In this document: positions 17,517 through 24,775 of the stretch, piece by piece | Numbering within the stretch: the stretch's first letter is position 1 | How the letters are laid out: each line of letters starts with the position of its first letter | From: a virus | Taxonomy: Duplodnaviria; Heunggongvirae; Uroviricota; Caudoviricetes | Direction: 5' to 3' (one strand) | IMG/VR virus record: IMGVR_UViG_2541047960_000003 | DNA length: 26,163 nucleotides | The notes under the pieces: generated by a model | Databases searched by the model: none | What the model saw: the letters and a program-made list of their open reading frames with translations, nothing else | Told to the model about the DNA's origin: nothing | Program-made: the position numbers and the translations under genes

Positions 17517-19111
17517 CAGAATCCCTCCAGCATACGGGCCGCCTGACGACGACGGCGTGAGCTTGCCTTCACCGGCCCTTTGTTAATTTCACGGCTGGCG
17601 AAATACGCCAGCGCCAGTGCGATGGCTGAATCCCCGTGGCGTTTACCACCGTCAGCCTTTGCTTTTGAGCGTTGCTCCGGTACGCGGGGGACACCGTTCA
17701 CCACCTGAACGGCCCGCAGGTCATCCAGTGTGTCTTCATCCTTTGGTAAGTCCACCAGGTTACCGTCTTCCAGTGCAGCTTTGACCGGAGGCATATGCTC
17801 CCGGTACCAGCCTTCGGTTGGCATCACCTGCTGAACCCGGCTGGAGCCGTAGCGCTGCATGGCGTATTCAGCCAGATAGGCACCATTACCACGGGCATCA
17901 AACGCTGCACCCAGCAGACCGGGCAGGCCATCCATCAGATACCAGGTGATTTGCTCCTGCTGTCTGAACGGCACGTTACGCAGCTCCAGTACGAATGGCA
18001 CGCGTCGTACCAGGTTCTTCTCCTGCAGCAGGGGATAGTCCACCGACAAATCACCGCTACGGCCAAAGTCGCGCCCCAGGAAAGAGCGGGCATCAGTGGG
18101 GAGTGCCTCCAGCAAGGGTTTCAGATACTCATCAAGCCAGTCCTGCGTCTCGCGGAAGCGAACCTCATCAGACAGCAGTTCATAACCTTCCTTGCAGGTC
18201 AGACGCAATACCGGCGTATCAGCGGACATGCGGGACTCTATCAGGGCACGGGACAGCCAGGCACCGCCACCGTTGGCCGGAATACAGTCAAGCTCTTCGG
18301 ATGCGCCGGCACCGTAGAATTTGTACACCGATGCCATCCAGGCCTGCTCGGATGCCTCCGACCATTCCTTCCCGGTGCGCAGACAGACGCGCCGGAACAG
18401 CCCCTCAGATACGGCTTCCCGGAAAGTGATGCGATGTATGCTGCCTCCCTGACGTCCGGCACGGATATCCCCGATAAGCGTATTGAACGGATTGTCGTCA
18501 CCGTCATGGGTGGAGATAACGCGTACCTTTCCCCCCCAGATAAGCATCGCCAGCGCCGCTTTCAGCAGTTCGTCCAGTTGCTCATGGAACGCCGCTTCGT
18601 CGATAACAATAATACCCTGACGGCCACGCAGGTTAGACGGGCGGCTGGAGAGCGCAACAATACGAAAGCCGGAGTCAGGAAATTTGATGGTGTAAGTCTT
18701 GATGTGTTTGTCGTCGTCGTCCTCTTCCCAGAATCCTTCTTCAATTTCACTGGCCGCATAGTTGAATGCCCGTGCCCACATCGCACACGCCTGAATGTAT
18801 TCGACGGTCATGTCCTGGTTATAAGCGATGTAATACACATTCATCCCGCCTGCTGGCGCAGAAGAGGCGGCGGTCAGTACGTTATCGGATGCCTCAGCCC
18901 ATGTAATACCGGTACGACGGCTCTTTTCTATCACCTTAAGCGGAGAGGTGTCTGCCACCCAGCGCTGCTGGTAAGGCAACAGAACGGGAGGGGCATCCAG
19001 CGCCGAGGTATCAGGCAAAACGGGAGCAAGGTTATTCCTCCCGTCCATGGGACTCATCCCTTCGGGGCCGCCGCCAGCGGCGTTTAAAATCACTCCGGAT
19101 GATTTTGTCAT
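17516..19111 (-). CDS. terminase large subunit (Mu gp28-like)
   Basis: 531-aa ORF preceding the portal gene; acidic EEDDDDK patch and overall size typical of a large terminase. Confidence 0.8.
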   Translation of the reverse strand: MTKSSGVILNAAGGGPEGMSPMDGRNNLAPVLPDTSALDAPPVLLPYQQRWVADTSPLKVIEKSRRTGITWAEASDNVLTAASSAPAGGMNVYYIAYNQDMTVEYIQACAMWARAFNYAASEIEEGFWEEDDDDKHIKTYTIKFPDSGFRIVALSSRPSNLRGRQGIIVIDEAAFHEQLDELLKAALAMLIWGGKVRVISTHDGDDNPFNTLIGDIRAGRQGGSIHRITFREAVSEGLFRRVCLRTGKEWSEASEQAWMASVYKFYGAGASEELDCIPANGGGAWLSRALIESRMSADTPVLRLTCKEGYELLSDEVRFRETQDWLDEYLKPLLEALPTDARSFLGRDFGRSGDLSVDYPLLQEKNLVRRVPFVLELRNVPFRQQEQITWYLMDGLPGLLGAAFDARGNGAYLAEYAMQRYGSSRVQQVMPTEGWYREHMPPVKAALEDGNLVDLPKDEDTLDDLRAVQVVNGVPRVPEQRSKAKADGGKRHGDSAIALALAYFASREINKGPVKASSRRRRQAARMLEGF

Positions 19112-19203
19112 GTGGCAATCCCCAGAATCTCGCGACGAAGCGCCTGTACTGCGTCGCTTGACAGTCCCCCCTTACGGGCAATTTTCTCGGCGTTGCTGGC
19201 TGC

Positions 19204-19653
19204 CTACTGCGCTCTGGCCCGTACTTCAGACTGGAACTTTTTGAGGTTGACGGACGCGCGGGACAGCGTAGCCACATTCTTCGCCACCTTCGACAGCAGG
19301 GCCACGCGTTCTTTAGGATCGACTTCGCCTTCTTCCGCCTCCTGCAACTGGACAATACTCTCGAACAGCTCGGTCTGAATAAGGGCTATCACAGCCTCCG
19401 AACGCGCATCCTGATCGTCTGCTGCGCCTTCGGTCAGCATGCGGGCCGCTTCTGTTGCCGCACGGATAGCACCATAGCGGCGCTCAATCTTCTGTCCATA
19501 GCGATGGATAGCGGATTTGCTGATGACGTACCCCCGCTCACGCAGCAGGGACTCCAGCTCGTTATACCCGCTGAAGCCGGATTCAGTCAGCGCCCGTTCA
19601 AGCCAGCGGCGCACGTCTTCCGGCAGCTTTTCTATTGTGCTGCGTCTGGCCAT
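19204..19653 (-). CDS. Mu gp27-like protein (putative small terminase / DNA-binding)
   Basis: 149-aa ORF upstream of the large terminase with an N-terminal HTH-like segment (SGYNELESLLRERGYVISKSAIHRYG). Confidence 0.5.
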   Translation of the reverse strand: MARRSTIEKLPEDVRRWLERALTESGFSGYNELESLLRERGYVISKSAIHRYGQKIERRYGAIRAATEAARMLTEGAADDQDARSEAVIALIQTELFESIVQLQEAEEGEVDPKERVALLSKVAKNVATLSRASVNLKKFQSEVRARAQ

Positions 19654-19964
19654 TATTCACTCCAGTACTTTTCCGGGCGGGCAATACCCGGACCACATTC
19701 CACGGTGTATTCCACCAGGTCTACGCCGAGGCGGGTCAGGTCAGCAAACCAGTCGCCAGAAGGTTTTTTCTCCAGATCAACCATTTTACGGTCAGCCAGA
19801 TAATCCAGTTCGCGGCGCAGTTCCAGCGGTGTGGTGTCCGGGTAGATGGCACGGGACACATCCAGCAGCAGCGTCTCGCTGGCGGTGTAAGGGCGGGTCT
19901 TGTTCAGGGCAACCAGCAGACTCCAGCGCAGGGATTCGCGGCGTACCCGGGTAATATCGACCAT
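19653..19964 (-). CDS. hypothetical protein
   Basis: 103-aa ORF tightly packed between neighbours, codon usage consistent with operon. Confidence 0.4.
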   Translation of the reverse strand: MVDITRVRRESLRWSLLVALNKTRPYTASETLLLDVSRAIYPDTTPLELRRELDYLADRKMVDLEKKPSGDWFADLTRLGVDLVEYTVECGPGIARPEKYWSE

Positions 19965-20290
19965 TATTGACCTCCGGTATTGCGGTACTGCTGTACCACT
20001 TCCAGTTTGTTATAAAGCGCGTCCAGTTTGGCCTCAATGACTGTCTGGCCACGGATATAATCCTCTCGACGGACATAATTCAGCGGTAAATCCGCTTTAA
20101 ATCGCATAAATTCTTTTTCCAGCTCGCCCCAGTTGGAGGCGGATTGTTGCAGGGCCTGTTCAAGGGAGGCGAATCGTGCCGCCTGGCGTTCTTCTGTTTT
20201 ACTGAACAACCATTTGGCGAGCCCTCCCACAAACCCCATGAAGGTGAGCAGAAAACTCACCACCGTCCAGAATTCAACCTGCAGTGTCAT
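19964..20290 (-). CDS. membrane-anchored coiled-coil protein
   Basis: 108-aa ORF, N-terminal TM (FWTVVSFLLTFMGFVGGLAKWLF) then charged helical region; ATGA-type overlap with Rz stop. Confidence 0.45.
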   Translation of the reverse strand: MTLQVEFWTVVSFLLTFMGFVGGLAKWLFSKTEERQAARFASLEQALQQSASNWGELEKEFMRFKADLPLNYVRREDYIRGQTVIEAKLDALYNKLEVVQQYRNTGGQ

Positions 20291-20937
20291 TTCTGTAATC
20301 CTTCCCGTTCATCCAGTAACGCGTTTATCTGGTTCCGCCAGCGACGACATTGTCCTGCGTTGTCGATGATGTTGGCGAGAACGTCACGCTGGGAGACACC
20401 CGAATCGCGTAACCGGGTGTCAGTGGTTTCAGGTTGCCCGGTCGCTGTGCCAGAGCGGGTGCCAGCGGCGGCAACTGAGTCTGAATGACCGGTGTCGACG
20501 GATGCGTTGTCATATCCGAGTGCGGTGTTGTACTGGCGCACGAAACCGCGAGTAAACACGCACTCAATGGGATGGCTCTTACCTTTTTCATCAATCCAGC
20601 GCTGTGTGACATCGTTAATTTGCCCCTGTAGTTGTTTATTCCGGCTCTCCAGTTGAGCAATCTGCTCAAGATAACCGGCTTCAGCCCGCTGCCCGGCGGC
20701 CACCTGCTCCTGATACCGTCTGGCCCAGGCCCGCAGCGCAGCATTCTCAAGCGTTGCCTGCTCCGTTTTGTACGCGTCAAATGCTGACTGCAACTGACTG
20801 AGCGCGGTATCACCGTCACGCTTTGCAGAGTCATGACCACTTCTGTATCCCATGGCATACAGGCCGACCAGAAAGGCATTGATAAGAATGGCCAGCAGAA
20901 TGCCGCGCCACGGCAGCTTTTTAATCAGATGCCACAC
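20287..20937 (-). CDS. Rz-like i-spanin
   Basis: N-terminal TM (GILLAILINAFLVGLYAMGY) followed by long coiled-coil region; proposed GTG start at 20935-20937 preceded by GGGGAGG + 8 nt; alternative ATG at 21039 would overlap the endolysin by 119 nt. Confidence 0.55.
   Translation of the reverse strand: MWHLIKKLPWRGILLAILINAFLVGLYAMGYRSGHDSAKRDGDTALSQLQSAFDAYKTEQATLENAALRAWARRYQEQVAAGQRAEAGYLEQIAQLESRNKQLQGQINDVTQRWIDEKGKSHPIECVFTRGFVRQYNTALGYDNASVDTGHSDSVAAAGTRSGTATGQPETTDTRLRDSGVSQRDVLANIIDNAGQCRRWRNQINALLDEREGLQK
20325..20591 (-). CDS. Rz1-like o-spanin lipoprotein, embedded in +1 frame within Rz
   Basis: ATG at 20589-20591; MKKVRAIPLSACLLAVSCAS has signal peptide and lipobox-like Cys; Pro-rich mature part (PSTPVIQTQLPPLAPALAQRPGNLKPLTPG). 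Confidence 0.5.
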   Translation of the reverse strand: MKKVRAIPLSACLLAVSCASTTPHSDMTTHPSTPVIQTQLPPLAPALAQRPGNLKPLTPGYAIRVSPSVTFSPTSSTTQDNVVAGGTR

Positions 20938-21661
20938 AACTGCTGCCTCCCCATGTGAGATATCGCGGTGCCAGTTCGCGCAGGATGCGCTGCGGATAAT
21001 GGCGGTTCTCCCGCCAGCTGGCCGCATTGCGTCCGGCATTCACCGTGGCGACATGTCCGAACCAGCGGGTGCTGTCCAGACCTTTCTGTGATGCAAGCCG
21101 CCTGTCCCGTTGTACCCAGCCCAGACCACCGTTATAGCCCGACAGTGTCATGGCCATACGCTCGCAGTCACTGGCGGCGCTGACACGCTGCCACAGCCAG
21201 CGGTCATAGCTGACCAGCGCCCGGATAGCCCATGCCGGATTAAACGGCTCACGACTGCTCAGCATCGGTATCAACTGGCTTATCCAGTCGGCAGTGGCAG
21301 GCATGAACTGCGCCAGTCCCTGAGCGCCAGCCGGCGAGATCGCATCAGGTCGCCAGCCGCTTTCCTGATGCAGTTGCGCGGCGAAATCGGCCACCGGCGC
21401 AGACAGTCCCCATTCAAGCCGGGCATTACGGATCACATCATCGCGATACTGCAGCGCAGCCTGCGGAGGTTGTGCTGCGCATGCCTGGCTGAAAAAGCCG
21501 CCACACCAGAGCAACATTGCGACAAAGAATACCCATGCCATATGAACCAGAAAGGTCCCGGCGCGGACTGACAGGCGTTCGGTTCTGATGAAGACCCGAA
21601 AGGCTTCGAAAGCCAGTTTCAGGGACATGCATACAATCCAGGTGATCTGCGGCCAGTTCAT
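20921..21661 (-). CDS. endolysin, lytic transglycosylase (SLT domain) with N-terminal hydrophobic segment
   Basis: 246-aa ORF with E-S-x-W...AQGLAQFMPATA catalytic-region pattern; N-terminal MAWVFFVAMLLWCGGFFSQACAAQ looks like a signal or SAR segment; start ATG 3 nt after the holin-like stop. Confidence 0.75.
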   Translation of the reverse strand: MNWPQITWIVCMSLKLAFEAFRVFIRTERLSVRAGTFLVHMAWVFFVAMLLWCGGFFSQACAAQPPQAALQYRDDVIRNARLEWGLSAPVADFAAQLHQESGWRPDAISPAGAQGLAQFMPATADWISQLIPMLSSREPFNPAWAIRALVSYDRWLWQRVSAASDCERMAMTLSGYNGGLGWVQRDRRLASQKGLDSTRWFGHVATVNAGRNAASWRENRHYPQRILRELAPRYLTWGGSSCVASD

Positions 21662-21663
21662 GA

Positions 21664-22014
21664 TTAAAGCCCCATCGCAACAGCCAGGCAGACCGCTGCA
21701 ACAATCAGTGCACGGCGGATTAACGCAGCAGAAAACACCAGGTGAAGGCCGGTCTGTACCGGGAAACGCCCTTCAGCCATCAGCCTGTCGTCATGTTTCA
21801 GGTACTGACCGGGACGGGCTTTGGGGAAGAGCGAACGGTCAAGCCAGTAACCCAGCACTGCTGCCAGCGTGATGAGTGCCAGCTTGTAGATCACAACAGG
21901 CAGCTGCTGTGGTGAGACCAGAGCGATGGTGCCCAGCAACAGCACTGAGGTCAGCAGCCAGCCGCTGAGGCGAGGTTTTTTAACAGGGGGAATGAATTTT
22001 TTCAGGTTTTTCAT
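21664..22014 (-). CDS. putative holin (small multi-TM membrane protein)
   Basis: ATG at 22012-22014 with GAGGAGA SD; about three hydrophobic segments; first gene of the late operon, immediately upstream of endolysin. Confidence 0.45.
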   Translation of the reverse strand: MKNLKKFIPPVKKPRLSGWLLTSVLLLGTIALVSPQQLPVVIYKLALITLAAVLGYWLDRSLFPKARPGQYLKHDDRLMAEGRFPVQTGLHLVFSAALIRRALIVAAVCLAVAMGL

Positions 22015-22144
22015 GTGTGTCTCCTCGTTTGGTGGAGACAGCATCACAAATACAGGGCGCAAAGGATTTTAAAGCGCGTTAAGAGAGCCGGGGATACGGG
22101 ATGTGCAGGATAAACGATGAATTATTCACAGAGGAGAATACGAT
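22015..22144. promoter_or_regulatory. divergent promoter region (late lysis/structural operon leftward; P-loop gene rightward)
   Basis: 130-bp non-coding gap between the first late gene start (22014) and the plus-strand gene start (22145); no specific promoter boxes confirmed. Confidence 0.3.
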
Positions 22145-22621
22145 ATGACGCACACACTGAATCCGGTCATCACTGTCACTGTGTCCGGTCCTGTGGGCAG
22201 CGGTAAAAGTTACGTACTGGCGCGGATAGAAGAGATGGTGAAACAGGAACTCGGAAACAGCGTCATTGTCGATGCTGCTGACGTGGAGAATGAGCGCCGT
22301 ATGAATGGCGAAGATCTGACGACCTGGCAGAAGCCACGGGGTGGCACAGTGATCAGGCTAGAGGAATACACGGGACAGGGCCTGTTGTCATACGGCGAGG
22401 AGCGTATCTGTCGGACGAATGAGCTGCTGGATGTTATATGCCCCACGGGCCGGCAACCCTGGATACTGCCCGATGCACTGCATGCCACCATTGCGGCACT
22501 GATGACAGTTTACGATCAGGAGCTGCTCATGAAGGAGTTACGTAAACTCACCGGTCAGCCAACAGAATGTTGTTCGTCTCCGAAGTACGGCAAACAGGAA
22601 AACGCCCCGGATAATCCTTAA
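22145..22621 (+). CDS. small P-loop (Walker A) protein, possible small kinase-fold protein
   Basis: 158-aa ORF; SD GAGGAG 8 nt before ATG; VITVTVSGPVGSGKSYV Walker A at residues 15-22, then VIVDAAD acidic motif about 20 residues later. Confidence 0.5.
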   Translation: MTHTLNPVITVTVSGPVGSGKSYVLARIEEMVKQELGNSVIVDAADVENERRMNGEDLTTWQKPRGGTVIRLEEYTGQGLLSYGEERICRTNELLDVICPTGRQPWILPDALHATIAALMTVYDQELLMKELRKLTGQPTECCSSPKYGKQENAPDNP

Positions 22622-22640
22622 GATACCTCCTGAACAGAAA

Positions 22641-22656
22641 CAGCCCTGAAGGGCTG
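22641..22656 (-). terminator. candidate intrinsic terminator ending the repressor-operon transcript
   Basis: CAGCCC-TGAA-GGGCTG hairpin 2 nt after the stop of the 196-aa gene; on minus-strand RNA it is followed by UUUCUGUU; on plus-strand RNA it is followed by A-rich sequence, so it is unidirectional. Confidence 0.4.
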
Positions 22657-22658
22657 CA

Positions 22659-23249
22659 CTAAAAAAAGAAGTGTATTATTGCCCAAACAGCTATAACGAT
22701 GATTCCCAGCCCAAGAGCCGATTCTAACTTATCTTTGGCAGTCATTTTTACTGTTGTAGCGGGCGCAGGTAAGTCTTGCTGCTGTGGATTTTCTGTTAGT
22801 TGTTTACGAGAAGAAACATCGCCCCTATTAGTTTGCTTCATGTTGATTACAGATGCGTTATGGGCATTATCAGCAGCAATTGACTGAAGTTTTACAAAAG
22901 TTTTTGAATCTGTTTTAGCCAGAAGTAACCTATTTCCCGTAAACATTGCCTTAAAAGTGATAGTTTTTTTCGTCTTGTCCGCCGCACCAAGCAAACCTCC
23001 AATGACCAACCCTGCACCACCAAAGATTAATCCACCAAGCAAACCTGCGCCTGCCGCCTTACCTATACGGCTTTCCTCTTCACTATCCGCAAGTTCAATC
23101 GATAAAAGCTCTTCTTTCAGATTTAATACAATATTTTCAGGAAAGCCTTGTTTTGGTTTTTTGGCAAACACGATGGTACCGAACCCCATGCTTGCCCACC
23201 CTTTAGGAAAACTTCCTGCGATAACCTGAATCCCTGCCATGTTCATCAC
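22659..23249 (-). CDS. glycine-zipper membrane protein of unknown function
   Basis: ~193-196-aa ORF (GTG/ATG start cluster at 23238-23249 after AAAGGTG); GxxxG-rich segment AAGAGLLGGLIFGGAGLVIGGLLGAA and C-terminal TM LGLGIIVIAVWAIIHFFF; AT-rich codon usage. Confidence 0.5.
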   Translation of the reverse strand: MMNMAGIQVIAGSFPKGWASMGFGTIVFAKKPKQGFPENIVLNLKEELLSIELADSEEESRIGKAAGAGLLGGLIFGGAGLVIGGLLGAADKTKKTITFKAMFTGNRLLLAKTDSKTFVKLQSIAADNAHNASVINMKQTNRGDVSSRKQLTENPQQQDLPAPATTVKMTAKDKLESALGLGIIVIAVWAIIHFFF

Positions 23250-23330
23250 CTTTTACATTAAAATTTCAGAACGCAGCATGATGCCGCCTTTGTCTTTTTT
23301 CTGATCCCATGGTAATTCAGCTGTTATTTT

Positions 23331-24317
23331 CTATTTAAGAATAAAACGGTATTTACTGTCAGGAGTGCTTTGCTGATCAAGTAGCAGTGAACGACATGGA
23401 GCAGTCAAAACCCGAGCATAACTACCATCAGGGCTTATGTTAATGTAACAAACCTTGCCCTTAACACTATAATTTTCGGGGACGGATGCCTTTGCTGATA
23501 CAGTAAATTTAAGGGTATGCCAGCCCGTTTTTTGCTTGTAGCTTGAAACCGAATGGAAATCATCTGAGTACTTATTTAACCCTGGAAACATGCTGCGCAG
23601 TGCGGGGATGGAATCTTCTATTATTTTATCGTTGGTTTTAATGTTAAAAACGCTGGTTTCAGTAGAAGCTACTGCTTTGGCATTTCCCCATTTACCAGCG
23701 AACACAATCATTCCCACGAAAAATATTGCTACAAGAACTAACACTCCCCCCAACACTACTACATGAGGCTTCCGGCTTCTGGTTGGTACAGTTGCGACTG
23801 ATTTTGCACCGCTTTCCGATGGAGGTGATAGAGTTTTACTCTCATCACGAATATTCAGCAGATCATCAAAATAACCAAACACAGCCTGCAACTGCTCTTT
23901 GTCTAGGCCTTTAAGATGGGTTGTACCGAAATGCTTCAGACAGTATCTGTCACGGTCAAGACGATACCCAGGGTCAGTAAGCGCCATTATTTTGCTGACC
24001 AGAAGATTACAGTCCTTCATATTCTGGATCTGTTGTGCATATCTCTGAAGGATCTCAACCGCACCATGATAATCAGCCGCAGTCATTTCATTAACTGTTT
24101 TGGTATTAAGTTTCGTGTGGATCGTCATCCATAGCTCGCGCTTACTTTCCCCCAGATCAACCAATTCATCCATCAATCTGTGTAAATCGCGTTTTTGCAG
24201 CAACGAAATTGGTTGCTGGGCCGAAGGAAGTATGTCAGCAGAATAGTTATGAATGGTAACATCACCGCTGACAACGTTACCCACATCCCCGTTAACTGTT
24301 TGCTTCTCTTTACTCAT
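23331..24317 (-). CDS. single-pass membrane protein of unknown function, translationally coupled to the repressor
   Basis: 328-aa ORF; ATG at 24315-24317 overlaps repressor stop (ATGA); ~190-aa N-terminal domain, one TM (HVVVLGGVLVLVAIFFVGMIVFAG), ~115-aa C-terminal domain. Confidence 0.55.
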   Translation of the reverse strand: MSKEKQTVNGDVGNVVSGDVTIHNYSADILPSAQQPISLLQKRDLHRLMDELVDLGESKRELWMTIHTKLNTKTVNEMTAADYHGAVEILQRYAQQIQNMKDCNLLVSKIMALTDPGYRLDRDRYCLKHFGTTHLKGLDKEQLQAVFGYFDDLLNIRDESKTLSPPSESGAKSVATVPTRSRKPHVVVLGGVLVLVAIFFVGMIVFAGKWGNAKAVASTETSVFNIKTNDKIIEDSIPALRSMFPGLNKYSDDFHSVSSYKQKTGWHTLKFTVSAKASVPENYSVKGKVCYINISPDGSYARVLTAPCRSLLLDQQSTPDSKYRFILK

Positions 24318-24775
24318 CTTCTCTTGGTATTTTTGTTCATTATTCCACCTGTTCCTATGGTTACGTTACCTTTGATAACATTCCCCAGAACATCTCCATG
24401 AATAACCTGTTCCGCCCGTTCTCTGGAGGAGCCAGTAGTCAAGGCCGACAAAACTGAACCTTTGACCTGTAATGGTGCCTGCCGGTAGTGCTGCAGTAAC
24501 TCCATTTCATCACGTGATAAAGTTATACCTGATGACTCCCCGGTAAGAATGAACTGTACATTGGCCCCAATTCTTGCAAAGGCTGCAAGTAACTCACCTC
24601 CGGGAACAGCAACCCCTCGTTCATATTTCCCCCACATTTCTCTTGAAACGCCACAAAGGGCTGCTACTTCAGCCTGCTTGAGTGATAACCGCGAACGCTC
24701 AGCTTTGAACCGCGACGCGCAAAGAGAATCAAAATTCACATAAACCTCATTGGCAATGAGAACAATAGTTCTCAT
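24314..24775 (-). CDS. XRE-family HTH transcriptional repressor (putative immunity repressor)
   Basis: 153-aa ORF with classic HTH_XRE segment (LSLKQAEVAALCGVSREMWGKYERG); divergent from the early operon across a 50-bp gap. Confidence 0.65.
   Translation of the reverse strand: MRTIVLIANEVYVNFDSLCASRFKAERSRLSLKQAEVAALCGVSREMWGKYERGVAVPGGELLAAFARIGANVQFILTGESSGITLSRDEMELLQHYRQAPLQVKGSVLSALTTGSSRERAEQVIHGDVLGNVIKGNVTIGTGGIMNKNTKRR

Follow-up and report, generated by a model that had tools for sequence, protein, structure and literature searches.

How does a phage lytic transglycosylase that carries a hydrophobic N-terminus of its own reach the periplasm, and where does that N-terminus come from? 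The question is raised by two adjoining minus-strand genes in IMG/VR record IMGVR_UViG_2541047960_000003, a Caudoviricetes sequence of 26,163 nucleotides (nt) that was analysed as a whole and is called the window below. A first-pass annotation had described an endolysin of the SLT type with a leader of about 40 residues ahead of a hydrophobic segment, coupled to a holin-like gene, and had offered secretion, signal-anchor-release (SAR) behaviour with a pinholin-type partner, or a translation start at Met41. Endolysin export is usually sorted into three routes, namely a cytoplasmic enzyme with a holin hole, SAR, and a plain signal peptide. The best explanation of the present locus is a 246-amino acid (aa) precursor with a fused two-helix (hairpin) leader, which would be exported through the Sec pathway independently of the holin and probably cut after Ala62.

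The leader of the endolysin precursor

The endolysin and holin genes lie where the first-pass annotation had placed them, on the minus strand at 20921-21661 and 21664-22014, respectively. The endolysin precursor comprises the following features, in which an arrow marks a predicted cleavage site and TMD stands for transmembrane domain.

20921-21661, minus strand: endolysin precursor coding sequence (CDS), 246 aa, from the open reading frame (ORF) list; the same CDS is called by the Prokaryotic Genome Annotation Pipeline (PGAP) and in the annotation of Escherichia phage PhiKM
21476-21661, minus strand: leader, residues 1-62, of which residues 1-57 are a diverged fused phrog_5479 homologue (MNWPQI...LLWCGGFF)
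21584-21652, minus strand: remnant of TMD1, residues 4-26, interrupted by K15, E19, R22 and R26 and then amphipathic; an AlphaFold helix over 4-26 has low confidence
21491-21559, minus strand: hydrophobic core GTFLVHMAWVFFVAMLLWCGGFF, residues 35-57, TMD2 of the hairpin or hydrophobic (h-) region of a signal, from hydropathy and conservation of WLLWCGGFF
21476-21490, minus strand: c-region SQACA, residues 58-62, with the AxA motif; the predicted cut is on the C-terminal side of Ala62, in the DNA between 21476 and 21475
20924-21475, minus strand: predicted mature periplasmic lytic transglycosylase, residues 63-246, from the SLT domain and the likeness to BcepMu gp22

By homology, residues 1 to ~57 of the endolysin are a fused copy of a gene that is found alone elsewhere, because the leader is related to phrog_5479 in profile and hidden Markov model (HMM) comparisons and because both fused (phage B3) and split (phage Ps56) forms occur. 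Window residues 1-58 align with positions 1-53 of the 53 in phrog_5479 (E=4.5e-4), an end-to-end match that takes in (W)PQI at the N-terminus and W-x-GGFF at the C-terminus, and the alleles of Klebsiella phage KP12 (3.5e-15) and of two further sequences (3.4e-12 and 4.6e-10) match the same family from end to end. An HMM built without window-type sequences gave 45.9 bits in the annotated frame only, the other two frames scoring ~0; the window leader as a frameshifted canonical hairpin was ruled out on this result, and the DNA is simply diverged. An HMM of 75 enterobacterial leaders, cut at GGFF, matched Ps56 gp26 end to end (34 bits, E=2e-7, Z=1e5), and Ps56 gp26 is itself assigned to phrog_5479 (a 53-position profile) by the PHROG library. 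A profile search of a 5.8-billion-protein collection recovered ~93 distinct free-standing relatives, mostly of 52-60 aa, which end 0-7 residues past GGFF (65 of the ~93 after one residue), and WLLWCGGFF is nearly invariant in fused and free-standing homologues.

The fused form is represented by phage B3 ORF25, in which the hairpin is followed by SSAKA↓DEIPRAAEQYRR and then by the SLT domain, directly after a PF13272 holin. Ps56 has the split form, with a separate 52-aa protein (MGAPQIIWIVL...ALVWWGGFFG) between the PF13272 holin and the SLT endolysin. Alignment of the Ps56 and B3 DNA places a 53-nt insertion in Ps56 exactly past the GGFF codons; with it come a stop codon, a new ATG and a signal of the lipoprotein type, MKRLLTLGLLGLLSAC.

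Two uncharged hydrophobic segments were found in the leaders of 86 of the 97 homologues with a locatable cleavage motif. The first-pass description of the leader was borne out for the hydrophobic residues 35-57, which follow some 34-40 residues, and fell short in overlooking a second helix, residues 4-26, which is a clear first transmembrane segment in most relatives. The count of Lys plus Arg (K+R) is ~0.07 in the N-terminal tail and ~3 in the inter-helix loop, in fused (n=76) and free-standing (n=93) forms alike, in which the two uncharged segments are 16 and 22 residues long; by the positive-inside rule this distribution of charge would put the loop in the cytoplasm and both ends of the hairpin in the periplasm, as export of the SLT domain requires. 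The proposal that the N-terminus is an export signal holds, and no holin hole should be needed for the enzyme to enter the periplasm.

The residues that follow GGFF look built for signal-peptidase cleavage rather than for SAR-type release. The consensus over 87 distinct two-segment leaders is S(80) Q(81) A(82) x A(85)↓A(81) Q/E P(86) P(81), in which position x (-2) varies over N, H, R, A, S and D, and fixed Ala at -3 and -1 with a variable -2 is the pattern of signal peptidase I. The window reads ...LLWCGGFF-SQACA↓AQPP, which agrees with the order expected of a Sec signal peptide, a hydrophobic core and then a short polar c-region whose -3 and -1 residues are small. The same mature N-terminus is kept with different leader types, since relatives with plain Leu-rich signal peptides (GSDA↓AQPP) also begin with AQPP and the KS10 homologue reads AHA↓QVP. 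For the latter the KS10 authors reported that SignalP predicts cleavage at 44/45, and proposed that the holin would act through depolarisation (PMC2628397). Cleavage by signal peptidase I after Ala62, predicted from this conservation, is rated as somewhat better than even, and holin-independent export as much more probable than that.

In the proposed mechanism, residues 1 to ~57 would descend from a separate two-TMD hairpin gene (phrog_5479) that was fused in frame to the SLT enzyme. The second hydrophobic segment (35-57) would serve as the Sec signal by which the precursor inserts, and signal peptidase I (LepB) would then cut after S-Q-A-x-A (Ala62), giving a soluble lytic transglycosylase of 184 aa that starts AQPPQAAL and a leader peptide that would stay in the inner membrane. 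The PF13272 holin would time lysis through collapse of the membrane potential and not through passage of the enzyme, and the spanins would finally break the outer membrane. The sequence data establish the identities of the genes, the relatedness of the leader to the free-standing family, its fused and split forms and the conserved AxA site; topology, cleavage and the control of timing are inferred.

Several points weigh against this mechanism. The second uncharged segment, with a median of 22 residues, is long for a cleavable h-region, and in P1 Lyz a signal-like N-terminus is said, in work ascribed to Xu et al. in 2004, to be left uncleaved. The AlphaFold model of the full precursor, made from a 61-sequence alignment, is poor (mean predicted local distance difference test score (pLDDT) 61, predicted template modelling score (pTM) 0.47), too poor for fold searches or for judging how the hairpin packs. 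Early release of an active transglycosylase would call for some form of restraint until the holin fires. Finally, Chamblee et al. (2022; PMC9239132) classed the SLT endolysins of Pseudomonas Mu-like siphophages, including that of Ps56 (AYD80447), as SAR endolysins.

Leader divergence and competing explanations

In the window the hairpin itself is altered. Residues ~9-36 have a hydrophobic moment of 0.53-0.62, compared with 0.10-0.14 in the KP12 TMD1, and the variant most common in E. coli (P0001, with 1104 member sequences) carries Arg43, which leaves an h-region of 14 residues that is too short for a membrane anchor. The hairpin in this E. coli allele thus seems to be decaying towards a long signal peptide, and the window leader may serve mainly in that capacity.

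The cassettes of the window and KP12 were compared with five more, drawn from further genomes or assemblies. In a single holin clade, identity is 93-97% for the holins, 80-92% for the mature enzymes, 82-96% for the proteins of the slot that corresponds to Mu gp25 and 94-100% for the gp26 homologues; the leaders of the same clade are 44-55% identical and change faster than any other part of the cassette. For the pair of window and KP12 (L002) the leaders are 44% identical and the neighbouring holin and mature enzyme 92-95%, with the divergence confined to ~125 nt (~21500-21640) that can barely be aligned, and the flanking DNA highly conserved. A Salmonella endolysin (L023 2501-3223; P0089, P0032, P0120) lies in a cassette whose holin is 93-96% identical to those of the window's clade and has an unrelated two-TMD leader, MTMIFYIISCVLVAAAIIASLYGAIRKACAEGAFFLVLIFLFFASMFG...SHA↓AEPP, which is 23% identical. 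Leaders of the Salmonella and KS10 types matched no PHROG family, and from the former it follows that the two-TMD architecture recurs with unrelated sequence. The divergence of the leader fits either a relaxed signal-peptide constraint or selection for diversity, and speaks against tight co-evolution with the holin.

Compatible with the fused-leader explanation, and an addition to it, is the reading of the precursor as a polyprotein, in which the cleaved hairpin is a second functional membrane protein made 1:1 with the endolysin; this is held tentatively, as a possibility with the odds against it. The liberated hairpin would have its WPQI and WLLWCGGFF motifs on the periplasmic side and would contain a hypervariable core, and possible roles are those of a lysis-timing modulator or antiholin, of a superinfection-exclusion-type effector, or in targeting a host envelope protein. 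Retention of the hairpin as a gene of its own in Ps56, after the endolysin had gained a separate signal, and the conserved motifs at both predicted periplasmic ends of a widespread free-standing family suggest that the hairpin has its own function, and the unrelated two-TMD leader of the Salmonella P0089 type, in a cassette that is elsewhere 93-96% identical, suggests that the architecture itself is selected. These arguments are countered by the positions of the free-standing genes, since all seven examined lie in early/replication or terminase regions and not beside a holin or SLT gene. In addition, BcepMu does without a hairpin, TMD1 is degenerate in the window allele, leaders (23-55% identical) do not co-vary with holins (93-97%), and fast divergence fits a relaxed signal peptide equally well. 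A lysis-specific partnership of the hairpin with the PF13272 holin was rejected on the first and the fourth of these grounds.

The seven free-standing phrog_5479-type genes (L007, L009, L011 and L013-L016, on metagenomic phage contigs) have genes for helix-turn-helix (HTH) repressors, SSB, RusA, NinB and methylases in their neighbourhood. The hairpin HMM gave a non-significant result with Mu gp19 (L004 960-1322; E=3.5 at Z=1e5), a membrane protein that Chamblee et al. tested as a holin candidate (PMC9239132).

Less probable is a SAR-type or otherwise tethered endolysin, in which the leader would remain uncleaved and the hydrophobic segment would hold the enzyme until depolarisation by the holin freed or activated it; this is considered unlikely, and the first-pass suggestion of SAR behaviour was not upheld. 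An N-terminal hydrophobic segment clearly exports the catalytic domain, a holin gene is tightly coupled upstream, and the homologous Pseudomonas Mu-like SLT endolysins bear the SAR label of Chamblee et al. (PMC9239132). The composition of the segment points the other way, with 23% G/A/S/T and 68% L/I/V/F/M/W in the window against 56% G/A/S/T in the SAR segment of Mu gp22. The SAR domains of P1 Lyz and phage 21 R contain 55-65% G/A/S/T. Nor is a single TMD with a short N-terminal tail seen: the 86 two-segment homologues have a loop with ~3 K+R, and in the window allele 34 residues, including five Arg or Lys, stand ahead of the hydrophobic segment. A hairpin with a basic cytoplasmic loop could not slide from the bilayer as a single SAR helix does, since in most relatives the loop would need to cross the membrane for release. 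The conserved AxA↓A with its variable -2 would go unexplained without cleavage. P1 Lyz carries a Cys in its SAR domain, of which the conserved Cys52 within the window segment is reminiscent; however, various homologues have Ser, Ala, Trp or Lys in place of this Cys, and the BcepMu gp22 leader contains no Cys.

The N-terminus of Ps56 gp27 (L006 1908-2537), MKRLLTLGLLGLLSAC, fits a lipoprotein signal with the lipobox LLSA↓C. Chamblee et al. (2022) include this protein in their survey and ascribe SAR domains to the Pseudomonas type of transglycosylase endolysin, a classification that for gp27 may deserve a second look. A more exotic variant of tethering would leave the hairpin uncleaved and have the protein in the releasin position (phrog_462, or DUF2730 in sister cassettes) pull the hairpin and its basic loop from the membrane.

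Translation from Met41 (21539-21541), with residues 1-40 untranslated and a short hydrophobic N-terminus, is highly improbable: an in-frame ATG exists at codon 41 and some automated gene calls begin internally, at Met12 (P0002, P0004, P0006), but among the 120 homologues listed Met occurs at codon 41 only in the window's E. coli subtype and is absent in KP12 and the other subtypes, direct reading of the sequence found no Shine-Dalgarno ahead of the codon, residues 1-40 match phrog_5479 and the independent leader HMM in the annotated frame only, from residue 1 onwards, and the frame and the WPQI motif are kept although the DNA there is heavily diverged. The N-terminal M-x-W-P-Q-I motif (MNWPQI in the window) is conserved among the homologues listed, and the annotated start at residue 1 is taken as correct.

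Enzyme, holin and the remainder of the cassette

All cassette genes are on the minus strand, in the order holin, endolysin, i-spanin with embedded o-spanin, and small membrane protein, and the remaining features are as follows.

22021-22025, minus strand: Shine-Dalgarno sequence AGGAG, 6 nt ahead of the start codon (ATG) of the holin gene, read from the sequence
21664-22014, minus strand: holin gene, 116 aa, Pfam Holin_2-3 (PF13272) and phrog_1528 'holin'
21362-21364, minus strand: codon of Glu100 (HQES motif), predicted catalytic acid, from the Slt70 alignment; invariant in 61-63 homologues
20287-20937, minus strand: i-spanin (Rz-like) with a GTG start and an N-terminal TMD, phrog_1403 'Rz-like spanin' (E=3.5e-92), with PhiKM and PGAP annotation
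20325-20591, minus strand: o-spanin (Rz1-like), 88 aa, out of frame within the i-spanin gene, with the lipoprotein signal MKKVRAIPLSACLLAVS↓C (LLAVS↓C) and a Pro-rich mature part
19964-20290, minus strand: slot protein, 108 aa, with an N-terminal TMD (residues 3-29), in the position of the Mu gp25 releasin, phrog_462 (E=1.6e-36)
19653-19964, minus strand: Mu gp26 homologue, phrog_436, the next gene downstream of the slot gene
19108-19653, minus strand: Mu gp27-family gene (DUF3486, 'small terminase'), downstream of the gp26 homologue

The assignment to the SLT type made in the first-pass annotation is upheld by matches to Pfam SLT (PF01464) over residues 97-193 (21083-21373; E=1.8e-14, 53.8 bits, cut-off 21.3) and to phrog_669 'endolysin' (E=8e-69), and by an alignment with the catalytic domain of E. 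coli Slt70. In that structure-sequence comparison the E-S motif falls at E100-S101, and the motifs G115-L-A-Q118 and Y176-N-G-G179 align with the GLxQ and YNxG of Slt70 and are invariant in 61 homologues. The SLT domain is therefore predicted to be intact, with E100, GLAQ and YNGG all present; C166 and C242 are also invariant among the homologues, and the catalytic domain is 60.7% identical to that of BcepMu gp22. Slt70 (PDB 1SLY, 1QSA) shares the GH23/SLT catalytic module with its E-S, GLxQ and YNxG motifs, but the likeness is limited to ~100 residues (E=1.7e-5) and the window protein is without the superhelical domains of Slt70.

The upstream gene is a holin-family gene coupled directly to the endolysin gene, as had been proposed. 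It matches PF13272 (E=1.1e-41, 141.8 bits, cut-off 27), which was the sole Pfam match at E<=0.01, and phrog_1528 'holin' (E=5.5e-55), and is 55% identical to BcepMu gp21. The product is small; its N-terminus is basic, two clear TMDs span residues ~17-34 and ~38-57, and a further hydrophobic segment (89-116) forms the C-terminus. Just 2 nt separate its TAA stop from the endolysin ATG, a spacing that recurs in KP12, B3 and Ps56. Pinholins of the phage 21 S68 type have two TMDs, of which TMD1 is a SAR domain, and form small heptameric holes. The pinholin role suggested in the first-pass annotation is unsupported yet not refuted, as hole size cannot be read from the sequence of a PF13272 holin, and an exported endolysin is compatible with small-hole and large-hole holins alike.

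A scan of 19900-22700 for sigma-70-type promoters gave no match upstream of the holin gene, with 1.5 expected by chance, which fits activator-dependent late transcription. The holin and endolysin genes are not chance ORFs, because PGAP calls identical CDSs on an identical E. coli chromosome and because 636 of the 5426 complete E. coli genomes (~12%) contain the pair, nearly always on the chromosome. Over 2.3 kb the region matches Escherichia phage PhiKM, which is classified in Bcepmuvirus, at 99.3% identity and KP12 at 87-88%. The locus is identified as the late lysis cassette of an E. coli prophage of the transposable Mu type that resembles BcepMu; as a BcepMu/B3-type cassette with an exported SLT endolysin it is of a known kind and very common in prophages.

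Downstream, the i-spanin gene overlaps the 3' end of the endolysin gene by 17 nt. A TMD-bearing i-spanin with an embedded, out-of-frame lipoprotein ORF makes up a two-component spanin; the o-spanin matched no Pfam or PHROG family, and its assignment is made from sequence features and from synteny with BcepMu gp24.

The slot protein occupies the position of Mu gp25, the DUF2730 'releasin' that the Mu SAR endolysin needs (PMC9239132), and is 51% identical to BcepMu gp25. A DUF2730 (PF10805) identity was rejected on sequence, only position and architecture being in agreement: no Pfam match was obtained even at E<=10, BLASTP found nothing between the slot protein and Mu gp25, PF10805 matched none of 124 members of the slot-protein family, the hhalign probability was 8.5%, and the two proteins fall into different PHROGs, Mu gp25 into phrog_736 and that of the window into phrog_462. 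The phrog_462 type fills the slot in the window, KP12, BcepMu and B3 (L018 2224-2613), and true DUF2730 fills it in an enterobacterial sister cassette (L020 3869-4171) and in Ps56 (L006 3362-3682), the cassettes being otherwise alike. The two types are similar in size, have an N-terminal TMD and show no detectable homology. They are interchangeable by position, from which an equivalent function may be inferred, and it is likewise position that suggests a lysis role for the slot gene; distant homologues in Mu-like phages of Gram-positive hosts leave room for a role outside lysis.

In the window the gp27-family gene has a premature stop at codon 150 (the ORF ends at 19204), where KP12 has Gln in a protein of 181 aa, and the identical gene of E. 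coli AR_0013 is a PGAP pseudogene with an internal stop. The prophage may be defective for packaging. On the other side of the cassette, three genes of unknown function lie in 22145-24775, between the cassette and a CI/CII-like HTH regulator (24314-24775).

22145-22621, plus strand: small P-loop protein, divergently transcribed, phrog_3787; PGAP 'ABC transporter ATPase'
22659-23249, minus strand: Gly-rich membrane protein, phrog_12025
23331-24317, minus strand: 328-aa protein with a central TMD, phrog_10002

A terminator-like hairpin is present at 22657-22640 on the minus strand, just upstream of the stop codon of the 22659-23249 minus-strand gene.

Comparison with known systems and wider meaning

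BcepMu gp21-gp25 (NC_005882) has the same gene order as the window, with a PF13272 holin, an SLT endolysin, Rz with embedded Rz1 (gp24), a phrog_462 protein and gp26/gp27 homologues. Its endolysin gp22 differs in having 203 aa, a plain signal peptide of 20 residues (MRVLIAFVVALLGAAAPVAA↓QVP) and no hairpin, and the leader HMM found nothing in the BcepMu locus. B3 ORF24/ORF25 carries the same fusion as the window, with a hairpin ending in GGFF, SSAKA↓DE and the SLT domain after the PF13272 holin. The deposited B3 endolysin CDS (L018 619-1413) begins at a TTG inside the holin gene, with an overlap of 61 nt; this start is probably wrong, the conserved MGIPQ start (locus position 682), 2 nt past the holin stop, being likelier. 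In Ps56 gp25/gp26/gp27 the leader homologue gp26 is free-standing, and the differences from the window are the 53-nt split, the LLSA↓C signal and a DUF2730 protein in the slot.

The SAR endolysins P1 Lyz, phage 21 R and Mu gp22 have in common with the window protein a holin-independent Sec export by an N-terminal hydrophobic segment. They differ in that the SAR proteins have a single, weakly hydrophobic TMD that is left uncleaved, whereas the segment described here has a strongly hydrophobic composition, usually comes second in a pair and precedes a conserved AxA site. Mu, a related phage that also transposes, has its downstream genes in the same order, but its gp22 is a phrog_7 muramidase, an enzyme of another class. 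Lys44 of Oenococcus phage fOg44 (PMC2628397, PMC8541568) has a cleaved Sec signal and a holin that would act by depolarisation, as is proposed here, and differs in its Gram-positive host, its unrelated enzyme and its ordinary signal peptide, which takes the place of a two-helix leader derived from another gene.

The search of the literature for two-TMD cleavable endolysin leaders found only a remark on Xanthomonas phage Xp10, the endolysin of which has two N-terminal TMDs that were discussed as enabling self-transport (PMC8541568). Compared by description, Xp10 is a precedent for a two-TMD endolysin and differs in its lysozyme-type enzyme and in reportedly having no holin gene. To our knowledge there is no evidence for a cleavage site in the Xp10 endolysin or for a free-standing counterpart of its leader. 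The nearest precedents for the leader architecture are thus the signal-peptide prediction for KS10 and the remark on Xp10, and a leader that consists of a fused small-membrane-protein gene with natural split counterparts has, as far as found, not been described.

The cassette would represent a fourth arrangement for endolysin export, in which a captured small membrane protein provides the signal and in which fused (B3, enterobacterial) and split (Ps56) forms can be compared. It also cautions that not every hydrophobic N-terminus of an endolysin is a SAR domain. In Mu-type cassettes the slot holds a gene of the DUF2730 releasin family in some cases and an unrelated one of similar appearance in others, which bears on the role of releasins where the endolysin is not of the SAR type. 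For the annotation and engineering of these endolysins, the active enzyme is probably residues 63-246, behind a start that is correctly annotated. For the uncharacterised and widespread family of ~53-aa phage membrane proteins to which the leader belongs, the fusion provides a first handle.

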